Source of the DNA: a virus
Taxonomy: Duplodnaviria > Caudoviricetes
Virus record (IMG/VR): IMGVR_UViG_3300016472_000794
Coordinates: 1 to 55,803 of that record
Direction: 5' to 3' (one strand)
Length of the DNA stretch: 55,803 nt
The position numbers were made by a program, and so were the translations under genes. Positions 4,612 through 27,277 of the stretch are shown here, piece after piece (position 1 is the stretch's first letter; the number at the start of each line of letters is the position of its first letter). Below the pieces are notes generated by a model. That model was not told where the DNA came from, made no database searches, and saw only the letters and a list, made by a program, of their open reading frames with translations.

Positions 4612-4627
4612 TGTTTCATGTGAAACA
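4612..4627. promoter_or_regulatory. parS-like site
   Basis: TGTTTCATGTGAAACA, 15/16 match to the canonical parS palindrome TGTTTCACGTGAAACA; intergenic between convergent units. Confidence 0.75.
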
Positions 4628-4719
4628 TCGCCAGCCGGCGCCCTCTGGACAGGAGGATGCAACGGGCAAGCGCTCTTTCGGGGGACACGAAGAACGCCCG
4701 GGCGCCGGCTGGCAGACGT

Positions 4720-5472
4720 CTAGCTCTCACGATTCTGCTGGTCGGACAAGGGCGACCGGAGCCTGGCCGCCGTCCAGCGTCGCACCGTGGTGACCGGCAC
4801 GCCGGTCTCCCGGCTGATGGCGGTCGGATTCATGCCGCCGGCGTGCAGCGCTTCGACATGCGCCCGGGCGCTGGGAAAGTTCACCGTGGAGACCGCAGCC
4901 GGTCTTTCGGCGCCCACGTTCGCAGGCGCGGGCGACGGGGCGGTCGCCGCCTCCGCCGGGGTGGTCGCCCCTGACGCCACTGCGGACGCCACCGCCGCCA
5001 CCGTGGACGCCATGGCCACGGCATCGGTGACCGCGTGACCGTTTTCGGTGGCCAGCCTGGGCGCCGACGGCGCCGGGGCGGTCGCCGACCCGCGCTCGGT
5101 GTCGTTCACCGCCCACATCAGCGCCGGATCGATCAGCGAGGAGAGGGTGAAGAAGGCCAGCAGCCAGAACGATTCCATCGTCCCGAGATCCGCGCGGGCG
5201 AGACTGGCGGCGTGGTGGGCGCTGTAGCCGCTCCAGCCGGCGAAGAGGATGAGCGCCGCGGTCCAGATCCCCATGGACGTGCGGCGTGCGTGTTCCTGGG
5301 CCTCGCGCAGCTGGTGGCTGGCGTTGAGCATCATGGCTGCGGCGAAGACGCTGACGATGGCGCTCGGGCCCGCCGAGCCGGTGGCCCAGCCCCAGGCGCC
5401 GAATCCACCCAAAAACAGCGCCCAGCCCACGACGACGCGCTTCACCCAGGTGGTTGGTCGACGCGCGCTCAT
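4720..5472 (-). CDS. Multi-TM membrane protein with C-terminal helix-turn-helix
   Basis: About 4 hydrophobic segments, Ala/Pro linker, then GMNPTAISRETGVPVTTVRRW. Confidence 0.7.
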   Translation of the reverse strand: MSARRPTTWVKRVVVGWALFLGGFGAWGWATGSAGPSAIVSVFAAAMMLNASHQLREAQEHARRTSMGIWTAALILFAGWSGYSAHHAASLARADLGTMESFWLLAFFTLSSLIDPALMWAVNDTERGSATAPAPSAPRLATENGHAVTDAVAMASTVAAVASAVASGATTPAEAATAPSPAPANVGAERPAAVSTVNFPSARAHVEALHAGGMNPTAISRETGVPVTTVRRWTAARLRSPLSDQQNRES

Positions 5473-5666
5473 CGAACGAACAGCAGCCCCGTGAGGCAGA
5501 TCATGGCGCCGAGCGCGACGAGGCCGGCCCCGGAGAGCCGCAGGACCACGCTCAGGCGCGGGCCGACGCCATTGATGACGGTCAGGCACGACCACATCGG
5601 CGCGCCAACGCTGGCGAGCAGGAGGCCAGCCATGACGGTGAGGAGGGCTTCAGGTGTTGGGAGCAT
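5469..5666 (-). CDS. Small membrane protein
   Basis: 65 aa with two hydrophobic segments; ATGA overlap with the next gene. Confidence 0.55.
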   Translation of the reverse strand: MLPTPEALLTVMAGLLLASVGAPMWSCLTVINGVGPRLSVVLRLSGAGLVALGAMICLTGLLFVR

Positions 5667-5799
5667 GGCGTCAGGGTGCGGTGCGGCGGTTAATGGATTG
5701 TTAGCAGACGCGCCGCACCGTGGGCGCGCCCAGACGACCTTCGGTGGCGCCTACAAGCACCCCTCGTCGTGATCCGGCGGCCCATCCAGGGCGTCTGGG

Positions 5800-6258
5800 C
5801 TACCCTTGCGCTTTCAGGGCCGCATCCCTGGCGGCGTTCAGCTCCGACATGACCTCCACGCTTCCGCCCGCATCCGGGTGCGCCAGCGCGGCCTTCTTGC
5901 GGTAGGCGGCGCGGATCTCCTCGGGGGAGGCGAGGGGCGAAATCTCCAGCACCTGCGCCCAGTGAGGGCGGCCGGGGGTCTTCACGGCCATCGCCATTTT
6001 CAGCGCTTCGGCGCGCGCAAAGATGGCGCCCCACCGCGCCTCGGCCAGTATCACTGCGGCGCGCACCGCCGTGCCCGCCTGTGCGGGGTGCCTCATGTTG
6101 GCGGCGCCGCTACGCCCCGGCGAAACCAGCGCACCCATCAGGGCGTCGACGACGTGCAGAGCCGTATCGCGCTGACCCAGCTCGTCGATCATGTCTCCCA
6201 CCACCTGATCGAGGCGCTCGCGAAGCGGGGAGTGTTTCGGCTCTGCACTGCTCATCAA
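5800..6258 (-). CDS. J-domain (DnaJ-like) protein
   Basis: WAQVLEI...EEIRAAYRKKAALAHPDAGGS...ELNAARD with an intact HPD motif. Confidence 0.9.
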   Translation of the reverse strand: MMSSAEPKHSPLRERLDQVVGDMIDELGQRDTALHVVDALMGALVSPGRSGAANMRHPAQAGTAVRAAVILAEARWGAIFARAEALKMAMAVKTPGRPHWAQVLEISPLASPEEIRAAYRKKAALAHPDAGGSVEVMSELNAARDAALKAQG

Positions 6259-6276
6259 GTCTTGACCTTTTGCGCA

Positions 6277-7245
6277 TCATGCGGCGCGCAGTATGCGCCC
6301 CAGTTCAGTTGCGATTGCGTCGTCGCTCTCTGCGATTTGCACCATGTTTCCCGGGCGCACATAGGCGGGAGGCTGAGGGACATCGCCTGGATTCAGGAGC
6401 AGAGTAAACGCCGCCCTCTGCATCCTCCGCAATCGCGCCCAGCGGTCCTTATCGAATGATCCTGTCGGGTTCCAGATGTTCGGCTCCCAGTCGCTCGTGC
6501 AGTCGAGCCGCGCGCGATAACCCTTGGCCACCGCCTCCCGAATGTGAGTTGGGAGATAACCGCCTTCGCGCGTCTCGATCATCCATTGCAGCGCCGCCGC
6601 ATGAGTCGGCCAGCAATGCACCGCAGGCCCGACATCGTCGCCGAGGAAGACATAGGCGCGCCCGTCCACGCAGAACCGGATGGTTGGGTGCGTGGCCTGT
6701 TCGCGCTTGCTGGCGCCGCAGCCGTACCCAGCGGGATTGTCGGGAACGGTGCTGTATTCCCAGCGCGCCGCCCGCAGCATCTCCATCGGATAGTCGAGCG
6801 TGTTGGCGTAGCGGGGGAGGGCAAGGCGCGCCATCTCCAGACCGGCGGTCCAGTCCTCCAAATCGCCGTCGCTCGATGCGGTGTGCGTCTCAGCGACCGA
6901 GCAGAGATAGCAGAGCGCCGCGACGACGGCGATGTCGTAGGGCTTGCGCGCGGTCTTGCAGAACGCCCACGCCGGGTTTTCGCCCGGGTAGCGCGGCGCC
7001 CGCACGACACTGCGCTCGATGTAGAAGGTCTCGTGACCGTCATCGCCGATGCCGTTGAATGTCAGGTGATCCGGCCCGAAGAATGGGCGCACGCCGCCCT
7101 CGTTGTACTCCTTCGCCAGCGGCACGCCCTGCACATGCTCGGCGTGATCGCAGATCGTTCGAAGGTCTTCGCAAATCTGCTTCCATGCGGCCTTCGAGAT
7201 GCGCTTCTTGGTCTGCGTCCAGTAGTGGGTGTAGCCCATTGTCAT
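6277..7245 (-). CDS. Conserved phage hypothetical protein (MGYTHYW...FCKTARKPYD type)
   Basis: Recognisable motifs GYTHYW, HETF, FCKTARKPYD, SSDG; AGGAGA RBS. Confidence 0.7.
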   Translation of the reverse strand: MTMGYTHYWTQTKKRISKAAWKQICEDLRTICDHAEHVQGVPLAKEYNEGGVRPFFGPDHLTFNGIGDDGHETFYIERSVVRAPRYPGENPAWAFCKTARKPYDIAVVAALCYLCSVAETHTASSDGDLEDWTAGLEMARLALPRYANTLDYPMEMLRAARWEYSTVPDNPAGYGCGASKREQATHPTIRFCVDGRAYVFLGDDVGPAVHCWPTHAAALQWMIETREGGYLPTHIREAVAKGYRARLDCTSDWEPNIWNPTGSFDKDRWARLRRMQRAAFTLLLNPGDVPQPPAYVRPGNMVQIAESDDAIATELGRILRAA

Positions 7246-7424
7246 CTCTCCTGAGTTCGGGGGGCTAGTTCGACGCGTTCGTTTCCGCAGGCGTCGCGTG
7301 CGGCGGCGTCTGCTGTCCCGTACCGCCGCGCGTGCTCGGCGAACGGGGAGTAGCTCTTGCGGCGGCCGGGTGGACAGACGTACCAGCCATCGCCGTTACG
7401 ACGCAGCACCCAATAGTGAGTCAT
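7242..7424 (-). CDS. Hypothetical protein (60 aa)
   Basis: MTHYWVLRRNGDGWYV...; RBS present and ATGA overlaps at both ends. Confidence 0.6.
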   Translation of the reverse strand: MTHYWVLRRNGDGWYVCPPGRRKSYSPFAEHARRYGTADAAARDACGNERVELAPRTQER

Positions 7425-7750
7425 GCTTGGCGCTCCTCTTGTGCGAGATAGTCTTCCCGGTTGGAGATGTGGATTTCGATGGAGAAGGGCTTGGTGCGCC
7501 CGCGCTCGTGCGAGAAGGGCAGGATGGCGCCGGTTGATCCGCGCCGCCACGCATGCGCCGCCGCCCACGCCACATCCTTCTTGGAGAGGCCGTAGGCGTA
7601 ACCGGGCCCAGATGCGCACGCGCCCTGTGCGTTGGCTTCCGACTGCAGGATTTCCTTCAGCTCGCGGCGAGTCTCACACCGGACCACATAGCTGTTGTTC
7701 GGCATGTAGCATCCGCGCAACCCGGTCAGGATCTGGAAGTAGCGCGCCAT
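7421..7750 (-). CDS. Hypothetical protein
   Basis: MARYFQILTGLRGCYMPN...; GGAGA RBS; translationally coupled. Confidence 0.65.
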   Translation of the reverse strand: MARYFQILTGLRGCYMPNNSYVVRCETRRELKEILQSEANAQGACASGPGYAYGLSKKDVAWAAAHAWRRGSTGAILPFSHERGRTKPFSIEIHISNREDYLAQEERQA

Positions 7751-8109
7751 CACACCGTCTCCGCTGCGAGGTGGCGCGCCAGCGCTTTCAGCGGACACAC
7801 GCCATCGTACGGCGTGAAATTGACGTCGCCGCGGCGCCTGTAAGCTTGGTGGAGTGGGCCGCCGCCGCGCGTGATCGAGATCGACCTCTGATCCCAGCGC
7901 GCCAGCGGGATCGTGTTCAGGTGGATGTCTCCGTTGGCCAGCGCTTCGCGAATCTCGTCGCGCGTCGCCGGGACGTCCTTTTCCGTGAGCCCGGCCTCCA
8001 GCGCGATCTCCAGAAAGTAGCGCTGGTGCTTCTCCTCGCGCCACTCGTTGAAGGCCCGGTCGCCTTTCGGCGCGCCTTCATTGCTCATGTACCAAGCGCG
8101 GGTCAGCAT
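7750..8109 (-). CDS. Hypothetical phage protein (DxHLNxIPLxxWD motif)
   Basis: Coupled ORF; motif seen in other phage early proteins. Confidence 0.6.
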   Translation of the reverse strand: MLTRAWYMSNEGAPKGDRAFNEWREEKHQRYFLEIALEAGLTEKDVPATRDEIREALANGDIHLNTIPLARWDQRSISITRGGGPLHQAYRRRGDVNFTPYDGVCPLKALARHLAAETV

Positions 8110-8447
8110 GGGCGAGCCCCCCGGAAATCGGCGCCGACCCACCGCCACATGGCGTCCTGCACCGGGGTTCCCCAGTCGGACACGATGTTCTCGCGAATGT
8201 GCCGGTCGAGACCGTTCGCCTGCGCGGCGATGTCGTTCCAGTGCGCGACGAAGGCGCCGTGGTGCATGACGCCGTCCGCGTCGACGAAGTCACACATCAG
8301 AAAGCCATCGCTGGTGATGGTCGCCTCGCCGACAAAGTACGCGTCGGTGCGGCGCATGTCGTCTGGCACGTCGAACGCGCGGTCGAGCATCGCCATGAAA
8401 AACGGCGAGCATCGCACGACATAGACTATTCCCCGGGGCTCGATCAT
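8103..8447 (-). CDS. Hypothetical protein
   Basis: AGGAGA RBS; first gene after the promoter at about 8470-8500. Confidence 0.65.
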   Translation of the reverse strand: MIEPRGIVYVVRCSPFFMAMLDRAFDVPDDMRRTDAYFVGEATITSDGFLMCDFVDADGVMHHGAFVAHWNDIAAQANGLDRHIRENIVSDWGTPVQDAMWRWVGADFRGARPC

Positions 8448-8469
8448 GATTGCGTCTCCTGTCTCTCCA

Positions 8470-8499
8470 TAAATAGGACGTCTATTTTACAGTTCAAGC
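8470..8499 (-). promoter_or_regulatory. Early promoter/operator, copy 1
   Basis: Minus strand GCTTGAACTGTAAAATAGACGTCCTATTTA; shares AAAATAGACGTCYTAT with copies at about 11111 and 21934. Confidence 0.7.
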
Positions 8500-8717
8500 C
8501 CGACGCCGGGATTGTGCCGCGCGATCACCTCGGTCGACCCTCTGGCGCGCACGCGCAGGGTGCGATCCGGATAGTGCCTGGCGTAGTACCCGGTCATGAT
8601 GTCCACCGCCTGCACGCGACGGTCGCAGGTCAGCAGCCAGAGCCACGATGTGTCGGTCTTGCGCTGCACCTCGATCAAGTATTGGCGCTCGGGTTCTGCA
8701 AGGTGTCTCGGGGGCAT
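8487..8717 (-). CDS. Hypothetical protein
   Basis: MPPRHLAEPERQYLIEVQ...; AAGGA RBS. Confidence 0.55.
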   Translation of the reverse strand: MPPRHLAEPERQYLIEVQRKTDTSWLWLLTCDRRVQAVDIMTGYYARHYPDRTLRVRARGSTEVIARHNPGVGLEL

Positions 8718-8896
8718 GTGTTTCGTCCTTTGTGCATGAGGTAGGCGCCGTACAGCGCGGTGAGGATGGAGGCCGCGATGGGCGCCTCCATCGAAGCGAG
8801 CCCGGCGATCCGAACGGCGCCGGCGGCCCCGGCGGCCATGCCGCCAAGCGCCACGAAGATCCGCCCGATGCGGAGGAGGGCAGCGGCTCTGTTCAT
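8675..8896 (-). CDS. Small membrane protein
   Basis: Two hydrophobic segments; coupled start. Confidence 0.5.
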   Translation of the reverse strand: MNRAAALLRIGRIFVALGGMAAGAAGAVRIAGLASMEAPIAASILTALYGAYLMHKGRNTCPRDTLQNPSANT

Positions 8897-9183
8897 TGCC
8901 GCTGTCCCGGCGGCTCCTGCAGCGCCTCACCCCTGCGCGCCAATTCCACGCGTTCGGGCGTCGGCATGTAGAAGCGCCGCGCGTGCCGCATCGTCTCGGG
9001 GTCGCGCCACTCGGTGACGATCTCCTTCCGGCAGGCATAGCGCCGCAGGGCCCGATTCAGGTTCATCAGCAGCTCCTCGCCGAAGCGCAAGACCACGAAC
9101 AGCGCCGTGATTGCGATCAGCGCCAAGCCGACGCCAAAGACGCCCGCGAAAAAGAGGAGGAACACCTGCATTGCATCGTTCAT
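8893..9183 (-). CDS. Membrane-anchored hypothetical protein
   Basis: N-terminal TM (VFLLFFAGVFGVGLALIAITALFVVL); GGAG RBS. Confidence 0.6.
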   Translation of the reverse strand: MNDAMQVFLLFFAGVFGVGLALIAITALFVVLRFGEELLMNLNRALRRYACRKEIVTEWRDPETMRHARRFYMPTPERVELARRGEALQEPPGQRQ

Positions 9184-9431
9184 GGTCGTACTTGCTCCAT
9201 GGCGACCCGAAGGTCTCGGAATGCCGCGCGCAGCAGCGCGCCGCGGTCCTTCGTCTCTGGCAGGAAGTGCAGCTTCGCGTGCGCGCACCGGGCGGGCGAC
9301 ATCAGATCCGCCTGCGTCGGGTGGCTGGCGAGCAGGAGCGTCAGCGCGATCACCCGACGCCGGCGCGTGTCAGGGCGCTTGCGGAGCAACGCCTTCGCCG
9401 GGCGTCCGCGCATCCATCCTGGACCGCTCAT
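9180..9431 (-). CDS. Hypothetical protein
   Basis: ATGA-coupled on both sides. Confidence 0.5.
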   Translation of the reverse strand: MSGPGWMRGRPAKALLRKRPDTRRRRVIALTLLLASHPTQADLMSPARCAHAKLHFLPETKDRGALLRAAFRDLRVAMEQVRP

Positions 9432-9646
9432 GTCTCGCGCTCCATCTTTCGCAGCGATTTCTGGGCAGCGCGCCAGTCAAAGCCCGTTTCTTCCAGCTTC
9501 ATGCGGATTGCATTCACCAGATCCCACGACACGCCGCAGGTCAGGACGTACCTTGCCTGCCGCTTGGGCGCCTCGATGGCGATCAGCGCCGCCAGCTCCT
9601 CCAGCGTGTACATTTTCGCAAGTCGTTTTTCCGAGTCAGCGCTCAT
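9428..9646 (-). CDS. Hypothetical protein
   Basis: AAGGA RBS; coupled to neighbours. Confidence 0.55.
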   Translation of the reverse strand: MSADSEKRLAKMYTLEELAALIAIEAPKRQARYVLTCGVSWDLVNAIRMKLEETGFDWRAAQKSLRKMERET

Positions 9647-9740
9647 GGCGGTCGTCCTTGTCGCCTGACAGGCCGGTGACCATGTCCGCGATCTTGGCGA
9701 TCTTCTCCGCCTGAGTCAGGCGCTCCTCAATTTCACCCAT
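9636..9740 (-). CDS. Small hypothetical protein (34 aa)
   Basis: GGAGA RBS, MGEIEERLTQAEKIAKIADM. Confidence 0.45.
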   Translation of the reverse strand: MGEIEERLTQAEKIAKIADMVTGLSGDKDDRHER

Positions 9741-9754
9741 GATGCTGTCTCCAG

Positions 9755-9787
9755 AAAAGTTTGGGGCCCGCCCGAAGGCGGGCCCCA
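9755..9787 (-). terminator. Intrinsic terminator-like hairpin after the DUF932 gene
   Basis: Minus strand TGGGGCCCGCC-TTCG-GGCGGGCCCCA followed by AACTTTT. Confidence 0.7.
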
Positions 9788-9808
9788 GTTGCAGGCGGCG
9801 GTTTCGGT

Positions 9809-11050
9809 TTACGCCACCTTGTCCAGCATGCGGCCGGCGACCCGCTCCAGCGCCACGCGCTCGTCCTGGTGGCCGATCTCGCGGGCGACGGCGGTGATGC
9901 CTTGCGCCATGTCCCACACCGTGCGGGCCTTGCCGCCTTCCTCCTTTTCGAACACGTCGAGCACCCTCTTCGACTGGGCGCCGCTCAGGCCGCGGTTCTT
10001 GAGGAACTCAAGCGCCGATTCCTGATCGCTGGCGACCTTGGCCTTCTGCGCGGCGGCGACCGCCTCGATCAGGCGCGCGTCCGAGCGGTTGGTCAGCTCG
10101 ATCAGCGCAGGCTGAGCCTCCGCAATGAAGCGGGCAGGGGCGTTCTTGGAGTGCCGCATCGAGAGCTTCTCGAAGCCCTCCACGCCCCACATGATGCGGT
10201 TGCAGCAGAGCGCGCGCAGGTAGAACGTGGCCAGCGTCATCGCGCCGGCGCCAACTTCCGAGTTCGACACATAGAAGCCCCGGAAGAGGATGTCGTCCTC
10301 GCCGTTCCGCGCCTTGCCGACCACGATGGGGTTGCGGTCATCGACGAGGAAGATGAACACGTCCCGGTCGCTGGCGTAGAGCGTGGTGGTGTCCTTCGTG
10401 GGCGCGACGTTCGGGTTGTAGACCATCGTGCGCCAGTCCATGACGCCCGGGATCTTCCAGCGGGTGTCGCCGGTGCCGTTGCCCGCAACCTGACGCACCG
10501 CCTCAACCACCTCGTGATCGAAGATGCGGCCATAGTCGGGGCCCGTTGCGGCGCGCAGATCGAGGCCCGGGCGCTCATAGAGCTTCACCTGCTCGACGGT
10601 GCGCAGATAGCGCAGGCCGTAGTTCAGGTTGTCGGCGACGATCTGCGAGGGCAGCTTGCGCAGGTAGCCCGCGGGCGCGCCGGCAAGACCGGCGAGCTGG
10701 CCGAACGACCAGTGCGTGGGCTCGCTTTCGACGCCATCCGGGCCGCCGATCTTGAGGACGTGGGTGTCCTCCACCGTCTCCGGAACCGGCGCGATGAACT
10801 CCACCTTGCGGGTGTCGACCGTGCGCTGCGTGGTCTCGTCGGCGCGGCGGCGCACGGAGCGCTGCAGGTCATCGAGCGACAGGAAACGCTCGTCCGACGG
10901 ACGACGGAACCATTGGTTGGACAGCTCCATGCGGGACTGGCCGCCGTTCAGGTTGGCGACCTTGAACGAACCGTCGGCGTTCACCGACGCCGGGCGGGCG
11001 CTGTCGAACGGGGTGGCTTCGCTGCGGTCGAGGATCTGGACTTCAGTCAT
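9809..11050 (-). CDS. DUF932-family phage/plasmid protein
   Basis: QWFRRPSDERF, PTHWSFGQL, YGRIFD, LYASDRDVFIFLVD, RGFYVSNSEVG, CCNRIMWG motifs. Confidence 0.85.
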   Translation of the reverse strand: MTEVQILDRSEATPFDSARPASVNADGSFKVANLNGGQSRMELSNQWFRRPSDERFLSLDDLQRSVRRRADETTQRTVDTRKVEFIAPVPETVEDTHVLKIGGPDGVESEPTHWSFGQLAGLAGAPAGYLRKLPSQIVADNLNYGLRYLRTVEQVKLYERPGLDLRAATGPDYGRIFDHEVVEAVRQVAGNGTGDTRWKIPGVMDWRTMVYNPNVAPTKDTTTLYASDRDVFIFLVDDRNPIVVGKARNGEDDILFRGFYVSNSEVGAGAMTLATFYLRALCCNRIMWGVEGFEKLSMRHSKNAPARFIAEAQPALIELTNRSDARLIEAVAAAQKAKVASDQESALEFLKNRGLSGAQSKRVLDVFEKEEGGKARTVWDMAQGITAVAREIGHQDERVALERVAGRMLDKVA

Positions 11051-11107
11051 GGTAGGCTTCCTTGAGAGGGTTGCTTTGACGCCGGCGGTCGTCCCGTCGA
11101 CCACCTT

Positions 11108-11139
11108 CAAATAGGACGTCTATTTTTCCCGGTCAAGCC
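11108..11139 (-). promoter_or_regulatory. Early promoter/operator, copy 2
   Basis: Minus strand GCTTGACC-GGGAAAAATAGACGTCC-TATTTG (TTGACC-N17). Confidence 0.75.
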
Positions 11140-11359
11140 CGCCGATCAAAATTTCTTCGCGCTCCCATGTCGGGGGTCCATAGTGGACGCCCAGCAGGGC
11201 TCCGTTTTCGTCGCGCATCTCCATCCAGGCGCATCGCTGGCCGGCGCGTCGCACCCACGCCCAGGCTCGCTCGGGGTCCTCGAACCGGCGGGCGCCTTCC
11301 ACGCCGCCCAGACTCATCCAGGTGACGTCGACCATTGATCTCTCCGCCCGGGCCGCCAT
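11120..11359 (-). CDS. Hypothetical protein
   Basis: ORF track; a GGAGAG RBS suggests the start is at MVDVTW. Confidence 0.5.
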   Translation of the reverse strand: MAARAERSMVDVTWMSLGGVEGARRFEDPERAWAWVRRAGQRCAWMEMRDENGALLGVHYGPPTWEREEILIGGLDREK

Positions 11360-11371
11360 ATTCTAGACGTC

Positions 11372-11584
11372 ATGTCCCCGACTCCACGACCCACTGCCAA
11401 GACATCCCGCCAAGGCTCGGCGATGTCGCTGCGCCTGTCGGACGCAGAGATCGACGCAGCCGGCCGCCTGAAGCGCTCGGACGAGACCGTCCAGGCCTTC
11501 CTGCGCAGGCTTCTGCGCGAAACCGCGCGCCGCCGCGGCGTTTCGATTCCGCCGCCCCGCGGGCGCGGGCGCCCCACGACCTGA
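11372..11584 (+). CDS. Ribbon-helix-helix-like DNA-binding protein, candidate repressor; possibly leaderless
   Basis: MSLRLSDAEIDAA...ETVQAFLRRLLRE strand-helix-helix pattern. Lone + strand gene in the minus arm. TTGATC-N18-TATTCT ends 7 nt before the ATG, and TAGACGTC abuts the ATG. Confidence 0.6.
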   Translation: MSPTPRPTAKTSRQGSAMSLRLSDAEIDAAGRLKRSDETVQAFLRRLLRETARRRGVSIPPPRGRGRPTT

Positions 11585-11588
11585 TCCA

Positions 11589-11972
11589 TCAGGACCGTGG
11601 CCGCTTGGGGAAGGGGCGGGAGGGGATTTTTCGCGTGCCCTTCGGCGGCCACGGATTGACGCGCGCCGGGATCTGTTTGGTGGCGCCCCGGGCCCGACGC
11701 GCCTGCTGCCCTGTCTCACCCGCCTGACGCTTCGCCTTGGCGATCTGCGTCAGATCCCGCGCGGTCTTCTCTGAGGCGCACGTCTTCCGCCAGAGCGCAT
11801 CGGGCTTCTCCTCATTGCCCATCGCCACGGGCATCGTGTGCTCGGCGATCACACCCTCCTCGGCGCCCAGGGCGACGCCGCACCCGCAGGCGCAGACGCC
11901 GCCCTGGCGCTCGAACATGGCTGCATGCTCCTTGACTGTGAGCGAGCGCCGGCGGAACGGCGACCTAGACAC
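11589..11972 (-). CDS. HNH-like endonuclease, degenerate
   Basis: RQGGVCACGCG...EHTMPVAMG...C..EKTARD..IAKAKR pattern of phage HNH proteins; some catalytic residues look altered. Confidence 0.65.
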   Translation of the reverse strand: MSRSPFRRRSLTVKEHAAMFERQGGVCACGCGVALGAEEGVIAEHTMPVAMGNEEKPDALWRKTCASEKTARDLTQIAKAKRQAGETGQQARRARGATKQIPARVNPWPPKGTRKIPSRPFPKRPRS

Positions 11973-12684
11973 GCTCAACAAAGCCCGCAGGCATCGCCGG
12001 GCCCACCGCGACGCCGCCCGCCGCGCGGCGCTCGGCGGTCTCCGGCTCGCCATCATAGCCCAATCCGAGGTCGCGGCAATAGTCCGCCCAGATCAGACGG
12101 ATGGTTGCGCCGCCAAACCCATAGGTCTTGGTGATCGCGCTGAAGGCGCCGCTACGCTCATTGTCCGGCCCGCCGTGGCGCAAAAGGATGCGGATCACAT
12201 CCGCGATCACCCACCGCGGCGCCCGCGCATAATGCTGCCCGCGCGCGCTGCGCCAGACGCCGCCATCCGGCATGTGCGGCTCGCTGGCGACCGCCTCACG
12301 AATCCGCGCAAACCGGCCCGCGCCAAGGGACACAGAGCCCGTCGGCTTCTGCATCAGATTGTCACCCAGGTGGGGGAGACCCAGTTTCCGCACCGCCTCG
12401 TCGCGCTCTCGTGTCAGGCGCTCAATCGCCTCTGCCGCGCGAGCCGCCTCTTCGGCAAGCCGCTGCTCGATGCGCTCGGAGATGAGCGACTCCAGCGCAG
12501 CCATCGCCTTCTCTTCCGCAACGCAGGCGATCCGCTGGCAGATCGCCAACCAGCGGCTCGACAAATCTATGTCGTCTTGTGCGTTGGAATGCCGCTCCGC
12601 AACGTCGATGGCGTCCACGTGTTCAACGCCGAGCGCCTTCAGCGCGGTGACTGTCTCGATCCAGTGTCTCAAATGCGTCGTCAT
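11965..12684 (-). CDS. Hypothetical protein with coiled coil
   Basis: AGGAGGAG RBS before MTTHLRHW. Confidence 0.6.
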   Translation of the reverse strand: MTTHLRHWIETVTALKALGVEHVDAIDVAERHSNAQDDIDLSSRWLAICQRIACVAEEKAMAALESLISERIEQRLAEEAARAAEAIERLTRERDEAVRKLGLPHLGDNLMQKPTGSVSLGAGRFARIREAVASEPHMPDGGVWRSARGQHYARAPRWVIADVIRILLRHGGPDNERSGAFSAITKTYGFGGATIRLIWADYCRDLGLGYDGEPETAERRAAGGVAVGPAMPAGFVERV

Positions 12685-13201
12685 TCTGCTCCTCCTGTCT
12701 GACAGACTCGATGAGCGCCGCCGCCGCAACAATGATGTCGGGGTGCCACGCTTCAAGCAACGCCAACGCGGCCTCGCTCTCCTTCTCCGGCGTCACACGC
12801 AATCCGTTCCAGCGCAACAGGCGCTGGCGTGCAAAGCCGGTAATCACGCGGGACAGATCGCCGAGGCCGCCGCCGCTCCTTGGGTCAGAAATCACCACCT
12901 CGGTCGGTCTGGGTGGCGCCGTCTGTCGATACCCTCGCTTCTCGCCAGATGACCGCCTGCCGTCGTCCTCGCGCGCGGCGCCCATCTCGCGCAAGAGGCG
13001 GCGTAGATCCTGCACCGCATTGGCGGCGCAATCATCAATGTTTCTGGGCGTCGAGGACGACACCAGCAGCCGGTGCTGGTCGCCGTACCGGATGCGCGCC
13101 CGCGGGTGAGCGCCGGGCGGCTCCTCCTGCATCGAGGCGCCCGGCCAGCTCTTGATTTCGGCTTCCAGCGCGACGCGAACAGGGCGCAATAGCTGGCTCA
13201 T
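12623..13201 (-). CDS. Protein with an N-terminal HicA-like domain
   Basis: GAHPRARIRYG...SSTPRN...NAVQDLRRLL resembles the HicA G-x-H fold; GAGGTG RBS. Confidence 0.5.
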   Translation of the reverse strand: MSQLLRPVRVALEAEIKSWPGASMQEEPPGAHPRARIRYGDQHRLLVSSSTPRNIDDCAANAVQDLRRLLREMGAAREDDGRRSSGEKRGYRQTAPPRPTEVVISDPRSGGGLGDLSRVITGFARQRLLRWNGLRVTPEKESEAALALLEAWHPDIIVAAAALIESVRQEEQNDDAFETLDRDSHRAEGARR

Positions 13202-13209
13202 GGATCACC

Positions 13210-13602
13210 TCACGGATAGCAGGCTGGCGAGAACTCGACGCCGTGCTCCGCGGCGAACGCTGAAATCAGCTCGATGAGCGCGCTCATCTCGGCGACGGTC
13301 ATCTGCGACGTCGACAGCCCGAGCGGCACCAGCGTCCCGGCGTCCAGACCCGGCACCACGCGGGCCTTGCGCAGGCTCGCAGTGAACACCGTCTTCCAGT
13401 CGTCCGGCGTCAGCTTCTGATCGTACCATTCGACCTGCTCGCTGATCTCGGACAGCATCGCCCAGAGCTTGGCGTTCTGCTCCAGGGTCCGCGTCCGGTC
13501 GCTGATCCGCACCACCTTGCCGTCAGGCGCTAGCCTGACCGCCTCCAGTGCGTTCGGTCGCGCGCGCGGATGGGCGCCGAGAATGAAGATCTGCGCGGTC
13601 AT
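13210..13602 (-). CDS. ninB: NinB/Orf recombination protein
   Basis: RTLEQNAKLWAML...WKTVF...STSQMTVAEMSALIELISAFAAEHGV. Confidence 0.9.
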   Translation of the reverse strand: MTAQIFILGAHPRARPNALEAVRLAPDGKVVRISDRTRTLEQNAKLWAMLSEISEQVEWYDQKLTPDDWKTVFTASLRKARVVPGLDAGTLVPLGLSTSQMTVAEMSALIELISAFAAEHGVEFSPACYP

Positions 13603-16746: not shown

Positions 16747-16749
16747 AGC

Positions 16750-16992: not shown

Positions 16993-17089
16993 CCCCGCCC
17001 GACCGCGCCGCGCTGGCGGGCAACGCTCCCGCCGGGCGCGTGGGCGGGGTTTTGCAGGCGGTTTTGGCGTTCTGTTGTGGAGACCGGCC

Positions 17090-17269
17090 ATGAAAAGCGA
17101 CCTGATCGACTTCGCGGTGCAGCTTCATCACGAAACCGAAAAAGCGTGGCTCGTCTCTGACGATGGCGAGCGAGACCACGCCGTCTGGATCCCGAAATCG
17201 CAAGCCGAACTGGCCGACGGCGTGCTGACCCTCCCTGAATGGCTGGCCACCGACAAAGGACTGATCTGA
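17090..17269 (+). CDS. Conserved small phage protein (ETEKA...WIPKSQ type)
   Basis: HETEKAWLV...WIPKSQ...LPEWLATDKGLI. Confidence 0.75.
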   Translation: MKSDLIDFAVQLHHETEKAWLVSDDGERDHAVWIPKSQAELADGVLTLPEWLATDKGLI

Positions 17270-18958: not shown

Positions 18959-19876
18959 GTGTCAGCACCACGTAAGGGCCCGAGGCTCTCCATCATTCCG
19001 GGGCGCGCGGCGGACGATCTCCGCCTCACCCTGCTGGATCTGCGCCTGCTGTGCGTTCTCGGCCGCCACACCGACGATGAGGGGTGGTGCTATCCCAACC
19101 AGGCGCGCATCGCCCAGCAGCTGGACGTCGCCCGCACGAGCGTGAGCAAGGCCATCACCCGGCTGGTCGGCGCCGGCTACGTCGAGACCCGGCCCCGCAC
19201 CCTCCCCGGCAAGGGAAAGGTCGGCTGTTTCTACCGGGTGATTCTAGATCCGCCATTTGCAGACACCCCAAAGCCGGTGTGCCTGGACGAGCACACCGGG
19301 AAATCGGAAGCCGATGGGGCCCATCCGGTGTGCTCAAAAGAGAACATCGGGGCCGATGTGCTCAAGCTGGAGCACACAGAACGACCCAGAGATTATCTCC
19401 CTACGGTCGATAATCTCGACTCCTCTCCTGCGCCTGCGGCGGCGAAGCCCGACCCCGTGACGCTGTACGAGCGCCTGGTCACGCAGACCCCCTCCAAACG
19501 ACGGGGCCGCCCGAAACGACCCGAGACTCCGCCGCCCGACGGCGACCAGGTTCCGGAGGCGGCGCGGCTGGCTGCGATCAAAATGGGCGTCTTGCCACTC
19601 CGGGTCGAATCGATGTGGGCTGAGTGTCTGGACTGGCACAGCGCCCGAGGGATCGAACGCGTCGACTGGGTCGCGGTGTTCCGGCAGTGGGTTCGCAAGA
19701 GGCAGAAATTTGACGAACGAGATCGCGACGCTGACGCCATCACTCGGGCAGCCCTTGCGCGCACGCCGCGCACCGGCAGCCGACCAGCAGATCGCGGAGG
19801 CGTCGGCACGATCATCGAGATCGCGCGTCGCGCTCGCGAGGCGGAACGGAAACTGGTCGATCCAGCTGAGCGCTGA
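18959..19876 (+). CDS. Replication initiator-like protein (N-terminal HTH)
   Basis: GWCYPNQARIAQQLDVARTSVSKAITRLVGAGYV HTH; C-terminal DWVAVFRQWVRK. Confidence 0.8.
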   Translation: MSAPRKGPRLSIIPGRAADDLRLTLLDLRLLCVLGRHTDDEGWCYPNQARIAQQLDVARTSVSKAITRLVGAGYVETRPRTLPGKGKVGCFYRVILDPPFADTPKPVCLDEHTGKSEADGAHPVCSKENIGADVLKLEHTERPRDYLPTVDNLDSSPAPAAAKPDPVTLYERLVTQTPSKRRGRPKRPETPPPDGDQVPEAARLAAIKMGVLPLRVESMWAECLDWHSARGIERVDWVAVFRQWVRKRQKFDERDRDADAITRAALARTPRTGSRPADRGGVGTIIEIARRAREAERKLVDPAER

Positions 19877-20800: not shown

Positions 20801-21060
20801 CGCGGGAGGAGCTGCGGGCCGCGGTTTATCAGGAGTTGCACGCCTGCATGCGCGAGCACATCTGCGACCTGCTGGTGCAGCGCGGATTGAGCGTGTGCGA
20901 CCAGAACCTGGCGCTGCTGCACGCGGTCGCCGATTTCGGGGCTGACGTGTCGGTCTATGTGCAGGCGCCCGGGGTCGAGGCGGGTGATCTGGTCGCGAGC
21001 GCCATGGCGCTCCGTCTGCAGGCGGGCGCCGCGCGACGGCAATGCATCGGCGCCGCGTGA
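20797..21060 (+). CDS. Hypothetical protein
   Basis: GTGA-coupled start with AGGAGA RBS. Confidence 0.55.
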   Translation: MTREELRAAVYQELHACMREHICDLLVQRGLSVCDQNLALLHAVADFGADVSVYVQAPGVEAGDLVASAMALRLQAGAARRQCIGAA

Positions 21061-21920
21061 TGGCGGCGTACTACAACGAAAACGATCCGTTCGCAGTCGC
21101 GTGGCTGCGCAACCTCATCGCCGCAGGAGAGATCGCTCCCGGTGATGTCGATGACAGGAGCATCTGTGACGTCCAACCCGATGATCTCGTGGGCTACACG
21201 CAGTGTCATTTCTTTGCTGGAATTGGGCTCTGGTCTTACGCCCTCCGGCTCGCTGGATGGCCTGACGGGCGCCCGGTCTGGACCGGCAGCTGCCCCTGCC
21301 AGCCCTTCTCCGGCGCCGGAAAGCAGCGCGGCACGGACGACGAGCGTCACCTCTGGCCTGAGTTCAGGCGTCTCATCGCCGTCGGCGCGCCTCCAGTCGT
21401 TTTTGGAGAGCAGGTTGCGAGCCCGCTTGGCCTCGACTGGCTCCACCATGTACGCGCTGACATGGAAGCCGAGGGCTACGCCTTCGGCGGCGCCGATCTG
21501 TGCGCTGCGGGCGTCGGTGCGCCGCAAATCCGGCAGCGTTTGTATTTCACCGGGCTTGGTCGCGGCTGGCTGGCCGGCGCCGACGGTGGGGAATGGCGAC
21601 GGAGGCCAAAGTCCAGCACCTGGGACCAGCGCGACGGGACGAACCCCCGATGGCCGCAAAGTGACGGTGGCGTTGCCGATGGTCGCGATGTTGACGGACT
21701 GGTCTCTCCGGGGAGAGCAGGCGCGCCGACAAACGGCTTCTGGGCAGATGCTGATTGGCTCTTCTGCCGGGATGGAGTCTGGCGGCCGGTTGAGCCCGGA
21801 ACATTCCCGCTGGCTGATGGGTATCCCACGCGCGTGGGACGCCTGCGCGCCTATGGAAACGCCATCGTCCCGCAGGTCGCGGCGGTCTTCATCGGCGCCG
21901 TGATGGATCTGGCGCCATAG
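21060..21920 (+). CDS. DNA (cytosine-5) methyltransferase, alpha polypeptide
   Basis: FFAGIG (motif I), GSCPCQPFS (IV), EQV (VI), RQRLY (VIII), RLRAYGNAIVP (X). Confidence 0.9.
   Translation: MAAYYNENDPFAVAWLRNLIAAGEIAPGDVDDRSICDVQPDDLVGYTQCHFFAGIGLWSYALRLAGWPDGRPVWTGSCPCQPFSGAGKQRGTDDERHLWPEFRRLIAVGAPPVVFGEQVASPLGLDWLHHVRADMEAEGYAFGGADLCAAGVGAPQIRQRLYFTGLGRGWLAGADGGEWRRRPKSSTWDQRDGTNPRWPQSDGGVADGRDVDGLVSPGRAGAPTNGFWADADWLFCRDGVWRPVEPGTFPLADGYPTRVGRLRAYGNAIVPQVAAVFIGAVMDLAP
21142..21903 (+). CDS. Embedded +1-frame ORF, putative methyltransferase beta polypeptide
   Basis: 253-aa open frame inside the MTase gene with GWPAPT and RLSPEHSRWLMGIPRAW (motif IX-like); true start uncertain. Confidence 0.65.
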   Translation: MMSMTGASVTSNPMISWATRSVISLLELGSGLTPSGSLDGLTGARSGPAAAPASPSPAPESSAARTTSVTSGLSSGVSSPSARLQSFLESRLRARLASTGSTMYALTWKPRATPSAAPICALRASVRRKSGSVCISPGLVAAGWPAPTVGNGDGGQSPAPGTSATGRTPDGRKVTVALPMVAMLTDWSLRGEQARRQTASGQMLIGSSAGMESGGRLSPEHSRWLMGIPRAWDACAPMETPSSRRSRRSSSAP

Positions 21921-21922
21921 GT

Positions 21923-21954
21923 GCTTGACGAGAAAAATAGACGTCTTATATAGT
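21923..21954 (+). promoter_or_regulatory. Early promoter/operator, copy 3
   Basis: GCTTGACG-AGAAAAATAGACGTCTTA-TATAGT, followed by an AGACAGGAGA RBS like that after copy 1. Confidence 0.75.
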
Positions 21955-21978
21955 GAGCGTAGACAGGAGAGCGCTCAC

Positions 21979-22224
21979 ATGAAGTTCACGACACGCAAGA
22001 TGTTCGGTGGCCACACCGTCCAGCACGACAACGTGGCCATCGCCAATTTCTCCCGCGGCGAGCAGGGGGATATGCTGTACAGCCTGCTCATTTCGGCGCT
22101 GTGCGCGCAGGGACACGAGGTGTTTGACCTCGATCTCGGCAAGACGCTCTGCGGCGATCTGGGAACGATGATCCGCGAAGACGAGATTGCCGCCGCCCGG
22201 GCCTCCATCAAGGTCGTGGAGTAA
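21979..22224 (+). CDS. Hypothetical protein
   Basis: AGGAGA RBS; downstream of promoter copy 3. Confidence 0.65.
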   Translation: MKFTTRKMFGGHTVQHDNVAIANFSRGEQGDMLYSLLISALCAQGHEVFDLDLGKTLCGDLGTMIREDEIAAARASIKVVE

Positions 22225-23888: not shown

Positions 23889-24828
23889 CCTCGGCGCCGA
23901 GCAGCCCGTGGAGGTTGTCGGCCTGAAGTCAGGTGCGGCGGAAAGGTATGCGCATTCGAACGGGCTCTATTGGGGCACGCCGGATTCGACTGATGCGCTG
24001 CAGCCCGGCTTCTACCGGCCGGTCGCGACCCAGATGGGGCCTGCCGTCTCGAAGCTGGATATGTCGACCGACAACCTGTTGGAGCTGCCCGACCCGACCT
24101 GCGATGCGCTGCTGCGTGAGTTCGTGGCGTTCTGGACCCGCGCGGAGCAGATGCGGAAGCGCGGCTTTTCCCTGAAGCGCGGCATCTTCCTGCAAGGCAA
24201 GCCGGGCGGCGGAAAAACCTCGGCGATCCAGCGGATGAGCGCGCACATGATCAACGAGATGGGGGGCGTGGTGGTCCTGATAACGCACCCCACCGTCTCG
24301 GCCCAGGCGTTGCAGCTTGTGCGCCAGATCGAGCAGAAGCGACCGATGATCTGCGTGTACGAGGACATCGACGCAATGGTGGACAGCTACGGTGAGTCCG
24401 AGATCCTGGCGCTCCTCGACGGCGAGCTGCAGATCGGCAACGTCGTCAATGTCGCAACCTGCAATTACCCCGAGCGGCTCGACCCGCGGTTCACCAACCG
24501 TCCCGGCCGGTTTGACCGGCTCATCGAGGTGCCCATGCCGCTGCCGGCGGCGCGGGAGGCCTATTTCCGCATCAAGGCGCCCGAGCTGGAGTTTGACACG
24601 CCGCGTCTGCGTCGCTGGGTCGAGGCCAGCGAGGGCTGGTCCATCGCCCACCTGCGCGAGCTGGTGATCGCGACACTGGAGCTGGGCGAGGACGATGGCG
24701 AGGTGATCGCTCGCCTGATTAAGATGCACGAGGTTCCCCCCTCCTCCGATCAGTTCGAGCGCGACAGGACCTTCGGGTTCAGGGCCGCTCGCCAGGCGCC
24801 GCGGATGCGAACTCGCGAGTTCATGTGA
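23875..24828 (+). CDS. AAA+ ATPase
   Basis: Walker A GKPGGGKTS, Walker B VYEDID, SRH ATCNYPERLD...RPGRFD. Confidence 0.92.
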   Translation: MEWNSLGAEQPVEVVGLKSGAAERYAHSNGLYWGTPDSTDALQPGFYRPVATQMGPAVSKLDMSTDNLLELPDPTCDALLREFVAFWTRAEQMRKRGFSLKRGIFLQGKPGGGKTSAIQRMSAHMINEMGGVVVLITHPTVSAQALQLVRQIEQKRPMICVYEDIDAMVDSYGESEILALLDGELQIGNVVNVATCNYPERLDPRFTNRPGRFDRLIEVPMPLPAAREAYFRIKAPELEFDTPRLRRWVEASEGWSIAHLRELVIATLELGEDDGEVIARLIKMHEVPPSSDQFERDRTFGFRAARQAPRMRTREFM

Positions 24829-24945
24829 TGGGTGTATCCAGAGGGCGTCCGTCACGCGCTTCTGGGGCTGCGCGCTGGTGGCGCTGAGCGCTGTGCTGCT
24901 GTGCGTGCTGGCGCCGGCGGTGGTTTGGATACTGTGGAGGATGGG

Positions 24946-25515
24946 ATGAGCGACGATTTGAAAACCGCGCTGCGTGCGGTGGTGGAGGCGCTGCCGGGCG
25001 CGACGAAGGCCAGTGAACAGCCGATGCTAACGGAGACGCAGATCGTGTCGGAACATCCGCAAGAGCGACGGTTGACGTTAAGCGAATGGGCGGACGCGCT
25101 TGAAAAGCGCGCCTCGACGTATGCGGTCGATGATTGCGGGTGGTCCGCAGAAGCGGCGCGGTTTGACCGCGCCCTCGCAGCGCGGCTGCGCGAGGCGGAC
25201 GAGGCGCTGGCGAAGCTGATCGCCGAGAATGCCCGCTTGCTCAAGCCGCAGTTCTATTGGGACCCGGAAGATCCTGAGACGCCGCGCGACAACGCGTTTG
25301 AATACATGGACGAGTATCACCCTGGCGAAATTCGTATGTGGACCACAGGCAACGAAACTGGCGTCGTGTACGCCGTCATGTTGCCCGCCGAAGAGGACGC
25401 GGACAGCGACGACGAATGGACCTTTGAACATCGCGACAAGGCGACCGTCCACAAAGCGCTTGCAGAAGAACTAGAGCGCCGCGCCCGCCGCGCGCGAGGA
25501 GGCGACCATGGCTGA
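24946..25515 (+). CDS. Hypothetical protein
   Basis: GGAGG RBS before MSDDLK. Confidence 0.6.
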   Translation: MSDDLKTALRAVVEALPGATKASEQPMLTETQIVSEHPQERRLTLSEWADALEKRASTYAVDDCGWSAEAARFDRALAARLREADEALAKLIAENARLLKPQFYWDPEDPETPRDNAFEYMDEYHPGEIRMWTTGNETGVVYAVMLPAEEDADSDDEWTFEHRDKATVHKALAEELERRARRARGGDHG

Positions 25516-25888
25516 GCCGAAGTGCGAGACAGTGGTGCGTCCACCCGTGACCCACAAGCTGAAGACGTGGCCTGAGTACTTCGACGCCGTCGCGCTTGGG
25601 GTGAAGACCTTCGAGGTGCGCGAGGATGATCGCGGGTATCGGGTGGGCGACTTGCTCTACCTTTGCGAGTGGTGCCCGAAAGAAAAGGCATTCACCGGCG
25701 CGACATGCTTGAAGCGCGTCACTTACATTCTTCACGGCGGACAGTTTGGCATCGAGGCCGATTGCGTCGTCATGGGGCTTGCAGAAGTCGTAAACGCCGC
25801 CGCCATCCGCGCGCGGAAATCGAACCCGCAGCCCGCCGGGGGCTGTGGCCCCGAAACCCCGGCGCCCAACACGGAGCCCCAGCCATGA
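25508..25888 (+). CDS. DUF3850/ASCH-domain protein
   Basis: HKLKTWPEYFDAV..GVKTFEVREDDRGYRVGDLLYLCEW. Confidence 0.85.
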   Translation: MAEPKCETVVRPPVTHKLKTWPEYFDAVALGVKTFEVREDDRGYRVGDLLYLCEWCPKEKAFTGATCLKRVTYILHGGQFGIEADCVVMGLAEVVNAAAIRARKSNPQPAGGCGPETPAPNTEPQP

Positions 25889-26145
25889 CCGACACCGAGC
25901 GCGCGCGAGAGGTGGCGCGGCAGATCGCACCGCAAGCGTACATGCTGCGCTGGCTTATGAAGGAAGAGGCAAGCCTTTACGGTGAATGTGAGGGCCGCGA
26001 TTTCGACGTGCTGCACAGCGCAGAAGTCGTCACAATCACCGGCAAGGTCACAGGGCCGCGCGCTGGATACGCGCTTGTGTCTGTCACCTCCTTCGGCCGC
26101 CTCGTCGCCGCCGAGCTGGAGAAGGAACGCGCCGATGAGCAGTGA
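25885..26145 (+). CDS. Hypothetical protein
   Basis: ATGA-coupled; GGAG RBS. Confidence 0.55.
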   Translation: MTDTERAREVARQIAPQAYMLRWLMKEEASLYGECEGRDFDVLHSAEVVTITGKVTGPRAGYALVSVTSFGRLVAAELEKERADEQ

Positions 26146-26398
26146 GAGACCGACGCTGGCCGAGCTGGCTGATGAGCTTGAAGCGGAAAAGCCTTGTGGA
26201 GGCTACACCGCCGCCAATGCCATCGCCCTATCGCCGGACACCGTAGCGCTCCTCGCAGCGCGCCTGCGCGAGGCGGACGAGGCGCTTGTCGCTGCCGAAC
26301 GCGTGCTGTGCGGATGGGAGCATGTTGAGGACAGCGCCGAGGAGCGCGATGCACTGGCAAAGGTCCGCCGCGCGCTCACAGGAGGCGGCCATGAATAG
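26135..26398 (+). CDS. Hypothetical protein sharing LAARLREADEAL with 24946-25515
   Basis: AAGGA RBS; 36-bp near-identical segment. Confidence 0.55.
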   Translation: MSSERPTLAELADELEAEKPCGGYTAANAIALSPDTVALLAARLREADEALVAAERVLCGWEHVEDSAEERDALAKVRRALTGGGHE

Positions 26399-26519
26399 CG
26401 CGCTGCAATGGGTCGCCGAGAACCAGTTTCCGCTCACCGCAGGCGCAATTCTTTTTGTGATGGTCGTGTTCTGTGTCGGGCTCATTGCGACACTGTGCAT
26501 GCTGATCGCAGATCGGTAG
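26391..26519 (+). CDS. Small TM peptide
   Basis: AGGAGG RBS; single hydrophobic segment. Confidence 0.5.
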   Translation: MNSALQWVAENQFPLTAGAILFVMVVFCVGLIATLCMLIADR

Positions 26520-26632
26520 GGTCAGCCATGGGTGAGCGGCTTTAGCCGCCGTTCGCGCGGCAGTCCGACAATAGCCACTCCTGCGCGGCGCATTTAGCCA
26601 CCGTGGTACGATGGCGCTGAAGGAGCTGATTC

Positions 26633-27277
26633 ATGCCCGGTGGCGGTTCAAAGCCCGGTGAGCGTCGCGGCGGTCGCAAGAAAGGCACGCCGAACAAGTT
26701 TCCGCGCGCCAAGACGTCACGGGCGAAGCCGGAGCCCGAGGCCAAGTCGACAGTCGCCAAGCCGCTCGGCAAGCGCGCCCAGAAGCTCGCGGCGGATCTC
26801 GCCGCCACCTACACGTCATCGATTGTCTCTCCTGTGGTCGATGGCGTTGCAGCCGGCGCAGAGGCAGCTGCGCTCGGTACTGGCCCCGGGGGGTCGGGTT
26901 TTGCTCCGCCCGGCCCCCCGGAAAGTGTTCCACATGAAACACTGCCACAGCCTGCCGCCCTGGATCGAGGCGATGCCCCCCTTGTGGTGCTGGAGCGCCT
27001 GCTGGTCTGGAGCGTTCGCGAGTTCGAGCGGCTGAACCGGCTCCCCAACGGGATCGAGCGGATCATTGAGGACAGGACCGGGCGTGTGCTTGCCCGCCGG
27101 GACGCCGTGGACTACGCCAAGCTCGCCGTCTCCTTCGCCGAGAAGGCCCTGCCCTATACGGCGCCGCGTCTCGCCACCGTCGATCCGAACAATAGGGGCG
27201 CGGCCACCTCCGTGGTGGTCAAGATTGTCCGCCAGGGCGACGATGAGGAGATTACTGTGGGGGTCCAAGCCGCATGA
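26633..27277 (+). CDS. Terminase small subunit-like protein
   Basis: GGSKPGERRGGRKKGTPNK and ALPYTAPRL motifs; upstream of TerL; AAGGAG RBS. Confidence 0.7.
   Translation: MPGGGSKPGERRGGRKKGTPNKFPRAKTSRAKPEPEAKSTVAKPLGKRAQKLAADLAATYTSSIVSPVVDGVAAGAEAAALGTGPGGSGFAPPGPPESVPHETLPQPAALDRGDAPLVVLERLLVWSVREFERLNRLPNGIERIIEDRTGRVLARRDAVDYAKLAVSFAEKALPYTAPRLATVDPNNRGAATSVVVKIVRQGDDEEITVGVQAA
26926..26941. promoter_or_regulatory. parS-like site inside the small terminase gene
   Basis: TGTTCCACATGAAACA, one mismatch to the consensus TGTTNCACGTGAAACA. Confidence 0.65.

Follow-up and report, generated by a model that had tools for sequence, protein, structure and literature searches.

Can a phage that encodes neither a partition system nor an integrase make use of the centromere system of its host? 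The question is raised by the genome of an uncultivated podophage, IMG/VR record IMGVR_UViG_3300016472_000794 (55,803 bp, 67.3% GC, rated 100% complete by CheckV), which we analysed at its full length and refer to as the window. It carries two 16-mers that closely resemble the parS sites of bacterial chromosomes, one near the end of the late operon (site 1) and one inside an open reading frame (ORF) upstream of the large terminase gene terL (site 2). Our reading, which we hold tentatively and at somewhat short of even confidence, is that the two 16-mers are working parS sites, so that the phage would hijack host ParB and couple its non-integrating DNA to the host ParABS system; the reading is built on sequence comparison.

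Both sites match TGTTNCACGTGAAACA, the 16-bp inverted repeat of chromosomal parS, at 15 of 16 positions, and both were found exactly where the original prediction had put them, one mismatch away from that repeat. No further place in the window comes within three mismatches of it, and the next best have four. A zero-order composition model counting both strands expects 8.0e-4 sites with at most one mismatch, and among 600 first-order Markov genomes one held a single such site and none held two, which bears out the earlier contention that these 16-mers are improbable by chance. At up to three mismatches the mean in shuffled sequences was 0.34 matches, and the four matches seen here (two places, each on both strands) were reached in one of 100 shuffles. 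When opposite strands are compared, the two sites are identical to each other at 15 of 16 positions and their likeness ends one base beyond the 16-mer; what is constrained is therefore the 16-mer core, as opposed to any longer repeat. Beyond the two sites the genome shows no excess of parS half-sites (GTTTCAC, 3 against 3.0 expected; GTTCCAC, 1 against 6.3). At the level of sequence, these results support the view that the two matches are genuine, are not random and belong to the chromosomal parS type.

The one position at which the sites depart from the repeat is the same in both. Chromosomal parS has a central CG within a CACGTG core, and at both sites this centre is TG/CA. The shared change had been noticed at the outset, and it comes down to the loss of the central CpG by one transition at each site, the appearance of TG at one and CA at the other reflecting strand symmetry and nothing more. 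Each phage site thus consists of one perfect arm and the half-site GTTTCAT. In the available part of a chromatin immunoprecipitation sequencing (ChIP-seq) study of Pseudomonas aeruginosa ParB, the half-site motif permits C to T at its last position, and GTTTCAT and GTTCCAT are among six half-site variants whose enrichment at peak summits is at least 4-fold (PMC5961200). Caulobacter parS sites, as far as the accessible text of a second study describes them, have one conserved half while the other half varies (PMC5815017).

Why would both sites have lost the most conserved dinucleotide? CACGTG is seen only once in the window, at position 12616, against 19.0, 11.7, 9.5 and 6.6 occurrences expected under Markov models of order 1, 2, 3 and 4, respectively; CACATG and CATGTG occur near expectation. 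Since the canonical hexamer is avoided in this genome, the central transition at each site may well fit restriction avoidance. A speculative alternative origin of the CpG loss is the deamination of 5-methylcytosine placed by the C-5 methyltransferase that the phage encodes. Several other 6-bp palindromes are likewise rare, with expectations from maximal-order Markov models: CGATCG (0 seen, 43 expected), CTCGAG (0 and 21), GAGCTC (0 and 17), GGATCC (1 and 19), TGATCA (1 and 16) and GTGCAC (0 and 8). Such a set of avoided palindromes forms a restriction-avoidance fingerprint that could help to identify the host.

The window seems to offer the sites no partner of its own. Six-frame searches of the window with profile hidden Markov models (HMMs) returned no ParB_N, AAA_31 (ParA type), Phage_integrase or Resolvase domain at E <= 1 and no HTH_3 (XRE) or Peptidase_S24 repressor domain at E <= 0.1, and no partition or integrase family was found among the 72 ORFs scanned against Pfam and PHROG. 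The claimed absence of parAB and integrase is thereby confirmed at the HMM level. The layout of a self-encoded parABS cassette is not seen either, as site 1 is flanked by spanin-like ORFs and by the gene for a membrane protein with a helix-turn-helix. What is found is the combination known from phi29: at least two host-type parS sites on a phage without its own ParA or ParB, and, as far as domains can be recognised, a non-integrating phage without a lysogeny module.

The phi29 precedent invoked in the original prediction is real. According to the accessible part of the report, the phi29 genome has five parS sites and its entrapment in the spore depends on Spo0J (PMC2731898), and we locate four perfect parS sites in the 19 kb of the phi29 genome NC_011048. 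By analogy with phi29 and Spo0J, we infer a purpose in inheritance or positioning. A dimer of host ParB would nucleate on both sites, and ParB loading would then link the phage DNA to host ParABS, perhaps also to SMC. The unintegrated genome could in this way be kept, or positioned, through host division in a delayed, carrier or dormant infection. The change from CG to TG would be a compromise, in which the restriction-prone CACGTG is removed and one perfect arm plus one tolerated arm are left. ParB binding, its spreading and the biological purpose are all inferred. The sites lie at or near the junctions of the early and late regions, with 22.3 kb of early region between them and 33.5 kb of late region in the remainder. 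Their midpoint, at 15.8 kb, falls approximately 270 bp from the divergent early gap (16015-16080), and any meaning attached to this proximity is speculative.

Sites with a TG centre also occur outside the window. The phi29-like viral contig G011, whose DNA polymerase and packaging ATPase are 47% and 41% identical to those of phi29, carries three canonical and three TG-centre sites over 10 kb (6299-15996), and no ParB_N was found on it. On a second viral contig, G003 (65% GC), six parS-like sites lie within 2.3 kb (1154-3440), one of them TG-centred and five canonical, of the form CGTTTCACGTGAAACG; no ParB_N was found in its 21.9 kb, a record that is 36% complete, so that a ParB gene may lie outside it. 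The G003 sites are situated among small orphan ORFs. These parS arrays lacking ParB_N suggest a wider class. Elsewhere, two TG sites occur close to a ParB_N ORF on an AT-rich contig, and in one bacterial metagenome-assembled genome (MAG) a TG site and a canonical site are 5 kb apart. A scan of IMG/VR for the TG variant gave at least 125 stretches, mostly on AT-rich contigs where chance matches are expected, and the GC-rich contigs with a single site that it returned are unrelated to the window and may be chance matches as well. We found no report of these exact 16-mers in the open-access literature that we searched. A DnaA-box reading was rejected: the CA variant matches the relaxed DnaA box at 8 of 9 positions, an uninformative result given that approximately 15 one-mismatch matches are estimated by chance in this genome.

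How strongly do these observations argue for host ParB as the partner? Several of our results, and some of the published work, weigh against it. The genome has only two sites, 22 kb apart, and in the part of the Caulobacter study that is available ParB spreading from one site covers approximately 2 kb, and clusters of sites seem to be required (PMC5815017). The ChIP-seq tolerance data concern half-sites and not the full TG-centred palindrome. In a census of 201 genomes from the phylum of the MAG mentioned above, the 76 distinct sites among those listed comprise 64 with CG, 7 with TG/CA and 5 with TA, numbers that include chance matches as judged from control counts; the share of TG/CA is near the control chance rate, and the TG variant is not established as a regular chromosomal parS. 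None of ten distant relatives (five IMG/VR records, one of them a complete 37.8-kb genome, and five GenBank phages) carries a site with at most two mismatches. Among the genes recognised in the window, in which many ORFs are without assignment, none would serve a carrier or lysogenic state. Finally, the spanin-like genes would narrow the host to Gram-negative bacteria and no further, and nothing was found for the asymmetrically dividing host that had originally been envisaged. The phages whose proteins match best infect Microcystis, Paracoccus, Rhizobium and Erythrobacter, and at 34-58% identity they are too remote for the host to be named from them.

There are no close relatives among GenBank phages by megablast or blastn, a tblastn search with the site-2 ORF gave nothing, and the best terL match across IMG/VR, genome contigs and metagenome contigs has 48% amino-acid identity. 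Because the ten distant relatives all lack a site, the sites would be a lineage-specific gain and not an ancestral feature.

A different use of the same host protein has to be considered seriously, because extra-chromosomal parS is toxic in Caulobacter. The sites could act as decoys that titrate host ParB onto many replicating phage genomes, derailing host segregation or division control. In the accessible text of the Caulobacter study, a strong parS on a plasmid lowers viability approximately 100- to 1000-fold, and a plasmid with two such strong sites is lethal (PMC5815017), a toxicity that fits a decoy as well as it fits partition and so counts against our preferred reading. The sequence evidence for ParB binding applies equally to a decoy. 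The gene content looks lytic, with no integrase or repressor found, and genome contigs yielded no prophage relatives by terL, apart from one distant match in a MAG. However, phi29, the only studied case, uses its sites for segregation, and two slightly weakened sites per genome would make a modest sink. On balance we consider takeover of this kind unlikely, and retain host ParB as a means of keeping or positioning the phage genome as the preferred reading.

Could a protein of the phage itself bind the sites, their likeness to parS being convergent or coincidental? Two candidates would come into question, P0011, encoded beside site 1, and P0001, encoded by the ORF that holds site 2 (Table 1). 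Site 1 is intergenic, as had been stated at first, and lies between the stops of the o-spanin-like ORF and of the convergent gene for P0011. It begins 12 nt past the stop of the o-spanin-like ORF, which closes the plus-strand late operon and whose start overlaps the i-spanin-like ORF; the spanin-like pair is what points to a Gram-negative host. The helix-turn-helix of P0011 matches HTH_23 at E 5.8e-4, under the Pfam cut-off, and P0011 is the sole DNA-binding candidate adjoining site 1, its gene ending 93 nt from the site. Partition cassettes usually have the centromere just downstream of the gene for the binding protein, an arrangement that speaks for P0011 in this role. With its hydrophobic helices, P0011 might also be a membrane tether for phage DNA; in this it would loosely resemble p16.7 of phi29. 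The GC-rich inverted repeat that separates site 1 from this gene folds as RNA with z-scores of -2.3 on the plus strand and -3.3 on the minus strand, lacks a T-run and is putatively a bidirectional terminator or a structured element.

For site 2, the original prediction had named the surrounding gene as that of the small terminase. The site indeed lies inside an ORF at this place, that of P0001; the terminase label is not supported, as P0001 has no family match, with nothing found in Pfam, PHROG or the PDB. Its detectable relatives are nine orphan viral proteins of 121-158 aa, which have in common with it a C-terminal motif and, at the N-terminus, an invariant basic motif. Among named Atlas clusters the nearest to P0001, at 0.90, is DUF5681, which gives no more than a lead. 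Between the two motifs P0001 has an insertion of approximately 70 residues that is absent from the relatives and that contains site 2. Within the insertion, GC at third codon positions drops to 0.47-0.53 (26813-26992). The structural model of P0001 has an overall predicted local distance difference test score (pLDDT) of 50.7, with residues 98-115 scoring under 50, and residues 81-114 are predicted to lack secondary structure. Site 2 is thus located in a predicted disordered, lineage-specific insertion, and for this reason constraint at the DNA level would be cheap for the protein.

P0001 is a possible small terminase all the same, since the ORF directly next to terL is kinase-like. That ORF, being kinase-like, is not the small terminase; it overlaps the start of terL, an unusual place for such a gene. 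P22-like phages have their pac site inside the small terminase gene, and P0001, with its basic N-terminal motif and its position upstream of terL, could accordingly be a terminase subunit with site 2 as pac. This would leave the second copy, 22 kb off at the far end of the late operon, unexplained, and P0001 is itself only a possible terminase. For either candidate, it is very unlikely that a phage operator would match the host centromere at 15 of 16 positions twice by coincidence, and no ORF resembles ParB or a centromere-binding family, either among the 72 ORFs scanned or in the six-frame ParB_N search. We therefore give a phage-encoded binder only a small chance.

Sequence from freshwater runs gives a view of variation around site 2. 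Four such runs were compared over 24000-32000. In one independent run, X4, a natural variant has undergone a repeat-mediated deletion of 1078 bp shortly upstream of the site-2 ORF (25172-26251), exactly between direct repeats of 36 bp at 25173-25208 and 26251-26286 that are 97% alike. The 10.2-kb contig of this run is colinear with 26251-31999 with 175 differences; among the 19 of these that are listed, none falls in site 2 and two fall between 26251 and 27590.

It is also conceivable, if rather improbable, that the 16-mers have no present function, being chance matches or decaying relics of host DNA whose central CpG was lost by deamination of methyl-cytosine. In favour of this, the dinucleotide missing from both sites is the most conserved one, a C-5 methyltransferase is among the phage genes, the distant relatives share no site, and a scan of very many windows should by our estimate yield some double matches by chance, mostly in AT-rich genomes. 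Against this, two sites by chance would be expected at approximately 1e-6 per genome of 67% GC. The flanks of the sites have no extended homology that would suggest captured host segments, and it is unlikely that two independent captures would decay at the same single base of 16 bp while the rest of each site stayed intact, strongly AT-rich as it is in a GC-rich genome. That the sites are merely RNA or DNA hairpins for transcription termination at operon ends is highly improbable: site 1, in the gap between convergent genes, can fold into a short hairpin, and a terminator-like hairpin stands 28 nt from site 2, but the stems are AT-rich with a loop of 2-4 nt and no T-run, the far stronger GC-rich inverted repeat beside site 1 already fills the role, site 2 is within an ORF, and the identity with parS would be left unexplained.

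Table 1. Positions of the two parS-like sites and of other features of the window.
Feature	Position	Strand	Description
parS-like site 1	4612-4627		TGTTTCATGTGAAACA; perfect 7-bp arms around central TG; 31% GC
parS-like site 2	26926-26941		TGTTCCACATGAAACA; encodes S98-V-P-H-E-T103 of ORF 26633-27277
Glycine-rich fibre paralogue	3026-3652	+	Repeats link it to 33467-35572
Small membrane protein	3694-4038	+	
i-spanin-like ORF	4035-4460	+	N-terminal membrane helix, then coiled coil; assigned from sequence features
o-spanin-like ORF	4279-4599	+	Signal peptide, LSGC lipobox; weak match to phrog_456 (Rz-like spanin), E 0.011
GC-rich inverted repeat	4630-4713		13-nt perfect arms at 4630-4642 and 4701-4713; begins 2 nt past site 1
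Convergent ORF (P0011)	4720-5595	-	Several hydrophobic helices, Ala/Pro-rich linker, C-terminal helix-turn-helix
C-5 cytosine DNA methyltransferase	21042-21920	+	phrog_363, E 5e-80
Orphan ORF holding site 2 (P0001)	26633-27277	+	Two ORFs upstream of terL
Terminator-like GC hairpin followed by T-run	26880-26897	+	28 nt upstream of site 2, in the same insertion; consensus scan only
Kinase-like ORF	27506-28195	+	Directly upstream of terL; Atlas structure matches, Phage_T7_kinase clusters, TM 0.55-0.59
Large terminase (terL)	28192-29568	+	phrog_2, E 9e-28
P22-type portal	30096-32483		E 8e-93
Major capsid protein	38583-39809		

The remaining gene content is that of a podophage. In addition to the portal, terminase and capsid genes, the phage encodes an SU10-type adaptor. 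The early arm on the minus strand has exonuclease, RecT-like and NinB genes (13.2-16.0 kb), and the plus-strand arm has an O-like replication initiator (18959-19876), the C-5 methyltransferase and an AAA ATPase. A tail-fibre-like family, phrog_5880, is split over the two ends of the record (55039-55803 and 94-1452); the map is therefore circular or circularly permuted, that is, an opened circle or a permuted genome. The runs that contain the phage sequence are labelled as freshwater metagenomes and come from four studies, and no RNA run is among those listed.

Three promoter-like elements, at 8440-8510 (-), 11085-11155 (-) and 21915-21985 (+), or around 8470, 11118 and 21940, have a CTTGAC-type -35 element, a conserved 17-nt spacer that includes AAATAGACGTC and a TATTTA or TATATA -10 element. 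They probably represent an early or middle promoter of the phage itself, with an operator, and this regulatory motif differs from the parS-like sites.

Some further features were observed in passing. The glycine-rich fibre ORF at 33467-35572 (701 aa) contains about a dozen tandem 66-bp (22-aa) repeats (34019-35019), and a paralogue of its N-terminal Gly-rich domain is present at 3026-3652. The tRNA-Cys that ARAGORN places at 25805-25875 (-), antisense to an ASCH/DUF3850 ORF (25508-25888), has an unusual anticodon, ACA, and is probably a false call. In the late region, an ORF with a PAPS-reductase domain (50210-50932, +) lies approximately 1 kb upstream of a DUF7178 ORF (52020-53087, +).

What would it mean if the sites do load host ParB? 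The phi29 strategy would then extend to Gram-negative, non-sporulating hosts, and there would be a concrete mechanism for pseudolysogeny and carrier states, which are widely reported and poorly explained. The sites would also present a natural trade-off between restriction avoidance and centromere strength, and orphan parS would be a simple sequence marker for such phages in metagenomes. The broadest form of this proposal is that the borrowing of host centromeres is recurrent and reaches beyond spore-forming Firmicutes, so that a lytic-type freshwater phage of a GC-rich Gram-negative host would load ParB at two CACGTG-less sites and be carried, positioned or silenced as an episome without a partition or integration gene of its own. 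In this general form we regard it as doubtful.

Set beside known systems, the two sites belong to the same 16-bp palindrome family as parS of P. aeruginosa and Caulobacter, where ParB, according to the available parts of the studies cited above, tolerates one imperfect arm. Chromosomal parS sites cluster near oriC beside parAB and mostly have a CG centre; here, in contrast, the sites are phage-borne, 22 kb apart and without parAB. Like the parABS cassettes of P1, N15 and actinophage-type elements, the sites are repeats resembling centromeres that are carried by a phage genome outside the chromosome. In those cassettes ParA and ParB are supplied by the element itself and the parS sequence is specific to it, whereas here no parA or parB was found and the sites are of the host chromosomal type. 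SGI1, as far as it is described in the accessible literature, is likewise a mobile element stabilised by a partition system encoded elsewhere, the parABS of an IncC plasmid; unlike the phage, it is an integrative island that uses the system of a helper plasmid and not that of the chromosome.

The closest parallel is phi29, from which the principle is already known. Both are lytic-type phages that lack parA, parB and integrase and carry several chromosomal parS sites of the host type, and even the placement recurs: one of the four perfect phi29 sites, at 17243-17258, comes directly after the last late gene (16244-17242) and before a bidirectional terminator (17262-17301), as does site 1. The two phages nevertheless differ in most other respects. 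The four perfect sites of phi29 stand against two in 56 kb here, both TG-centred; the host of phi29 is a Gram-positive spore former, whereas the spanin-like genes indicate a Gram-negative host; and phi29 is a protein-primed picovirus, unrelated to this podophage with its P22-type portal. In the open-access literature that we searched, no description was found of chromosomal-type parS in a parAB-less phage of a Gram-negative host. Relative to phi29, what is new is thus the setting, a GC-rich freshwater podophage that apparently infects a Gram-negative host, together with the absence of CACGTG from both sites and the hint of a wider group of parS arrays without ParB.

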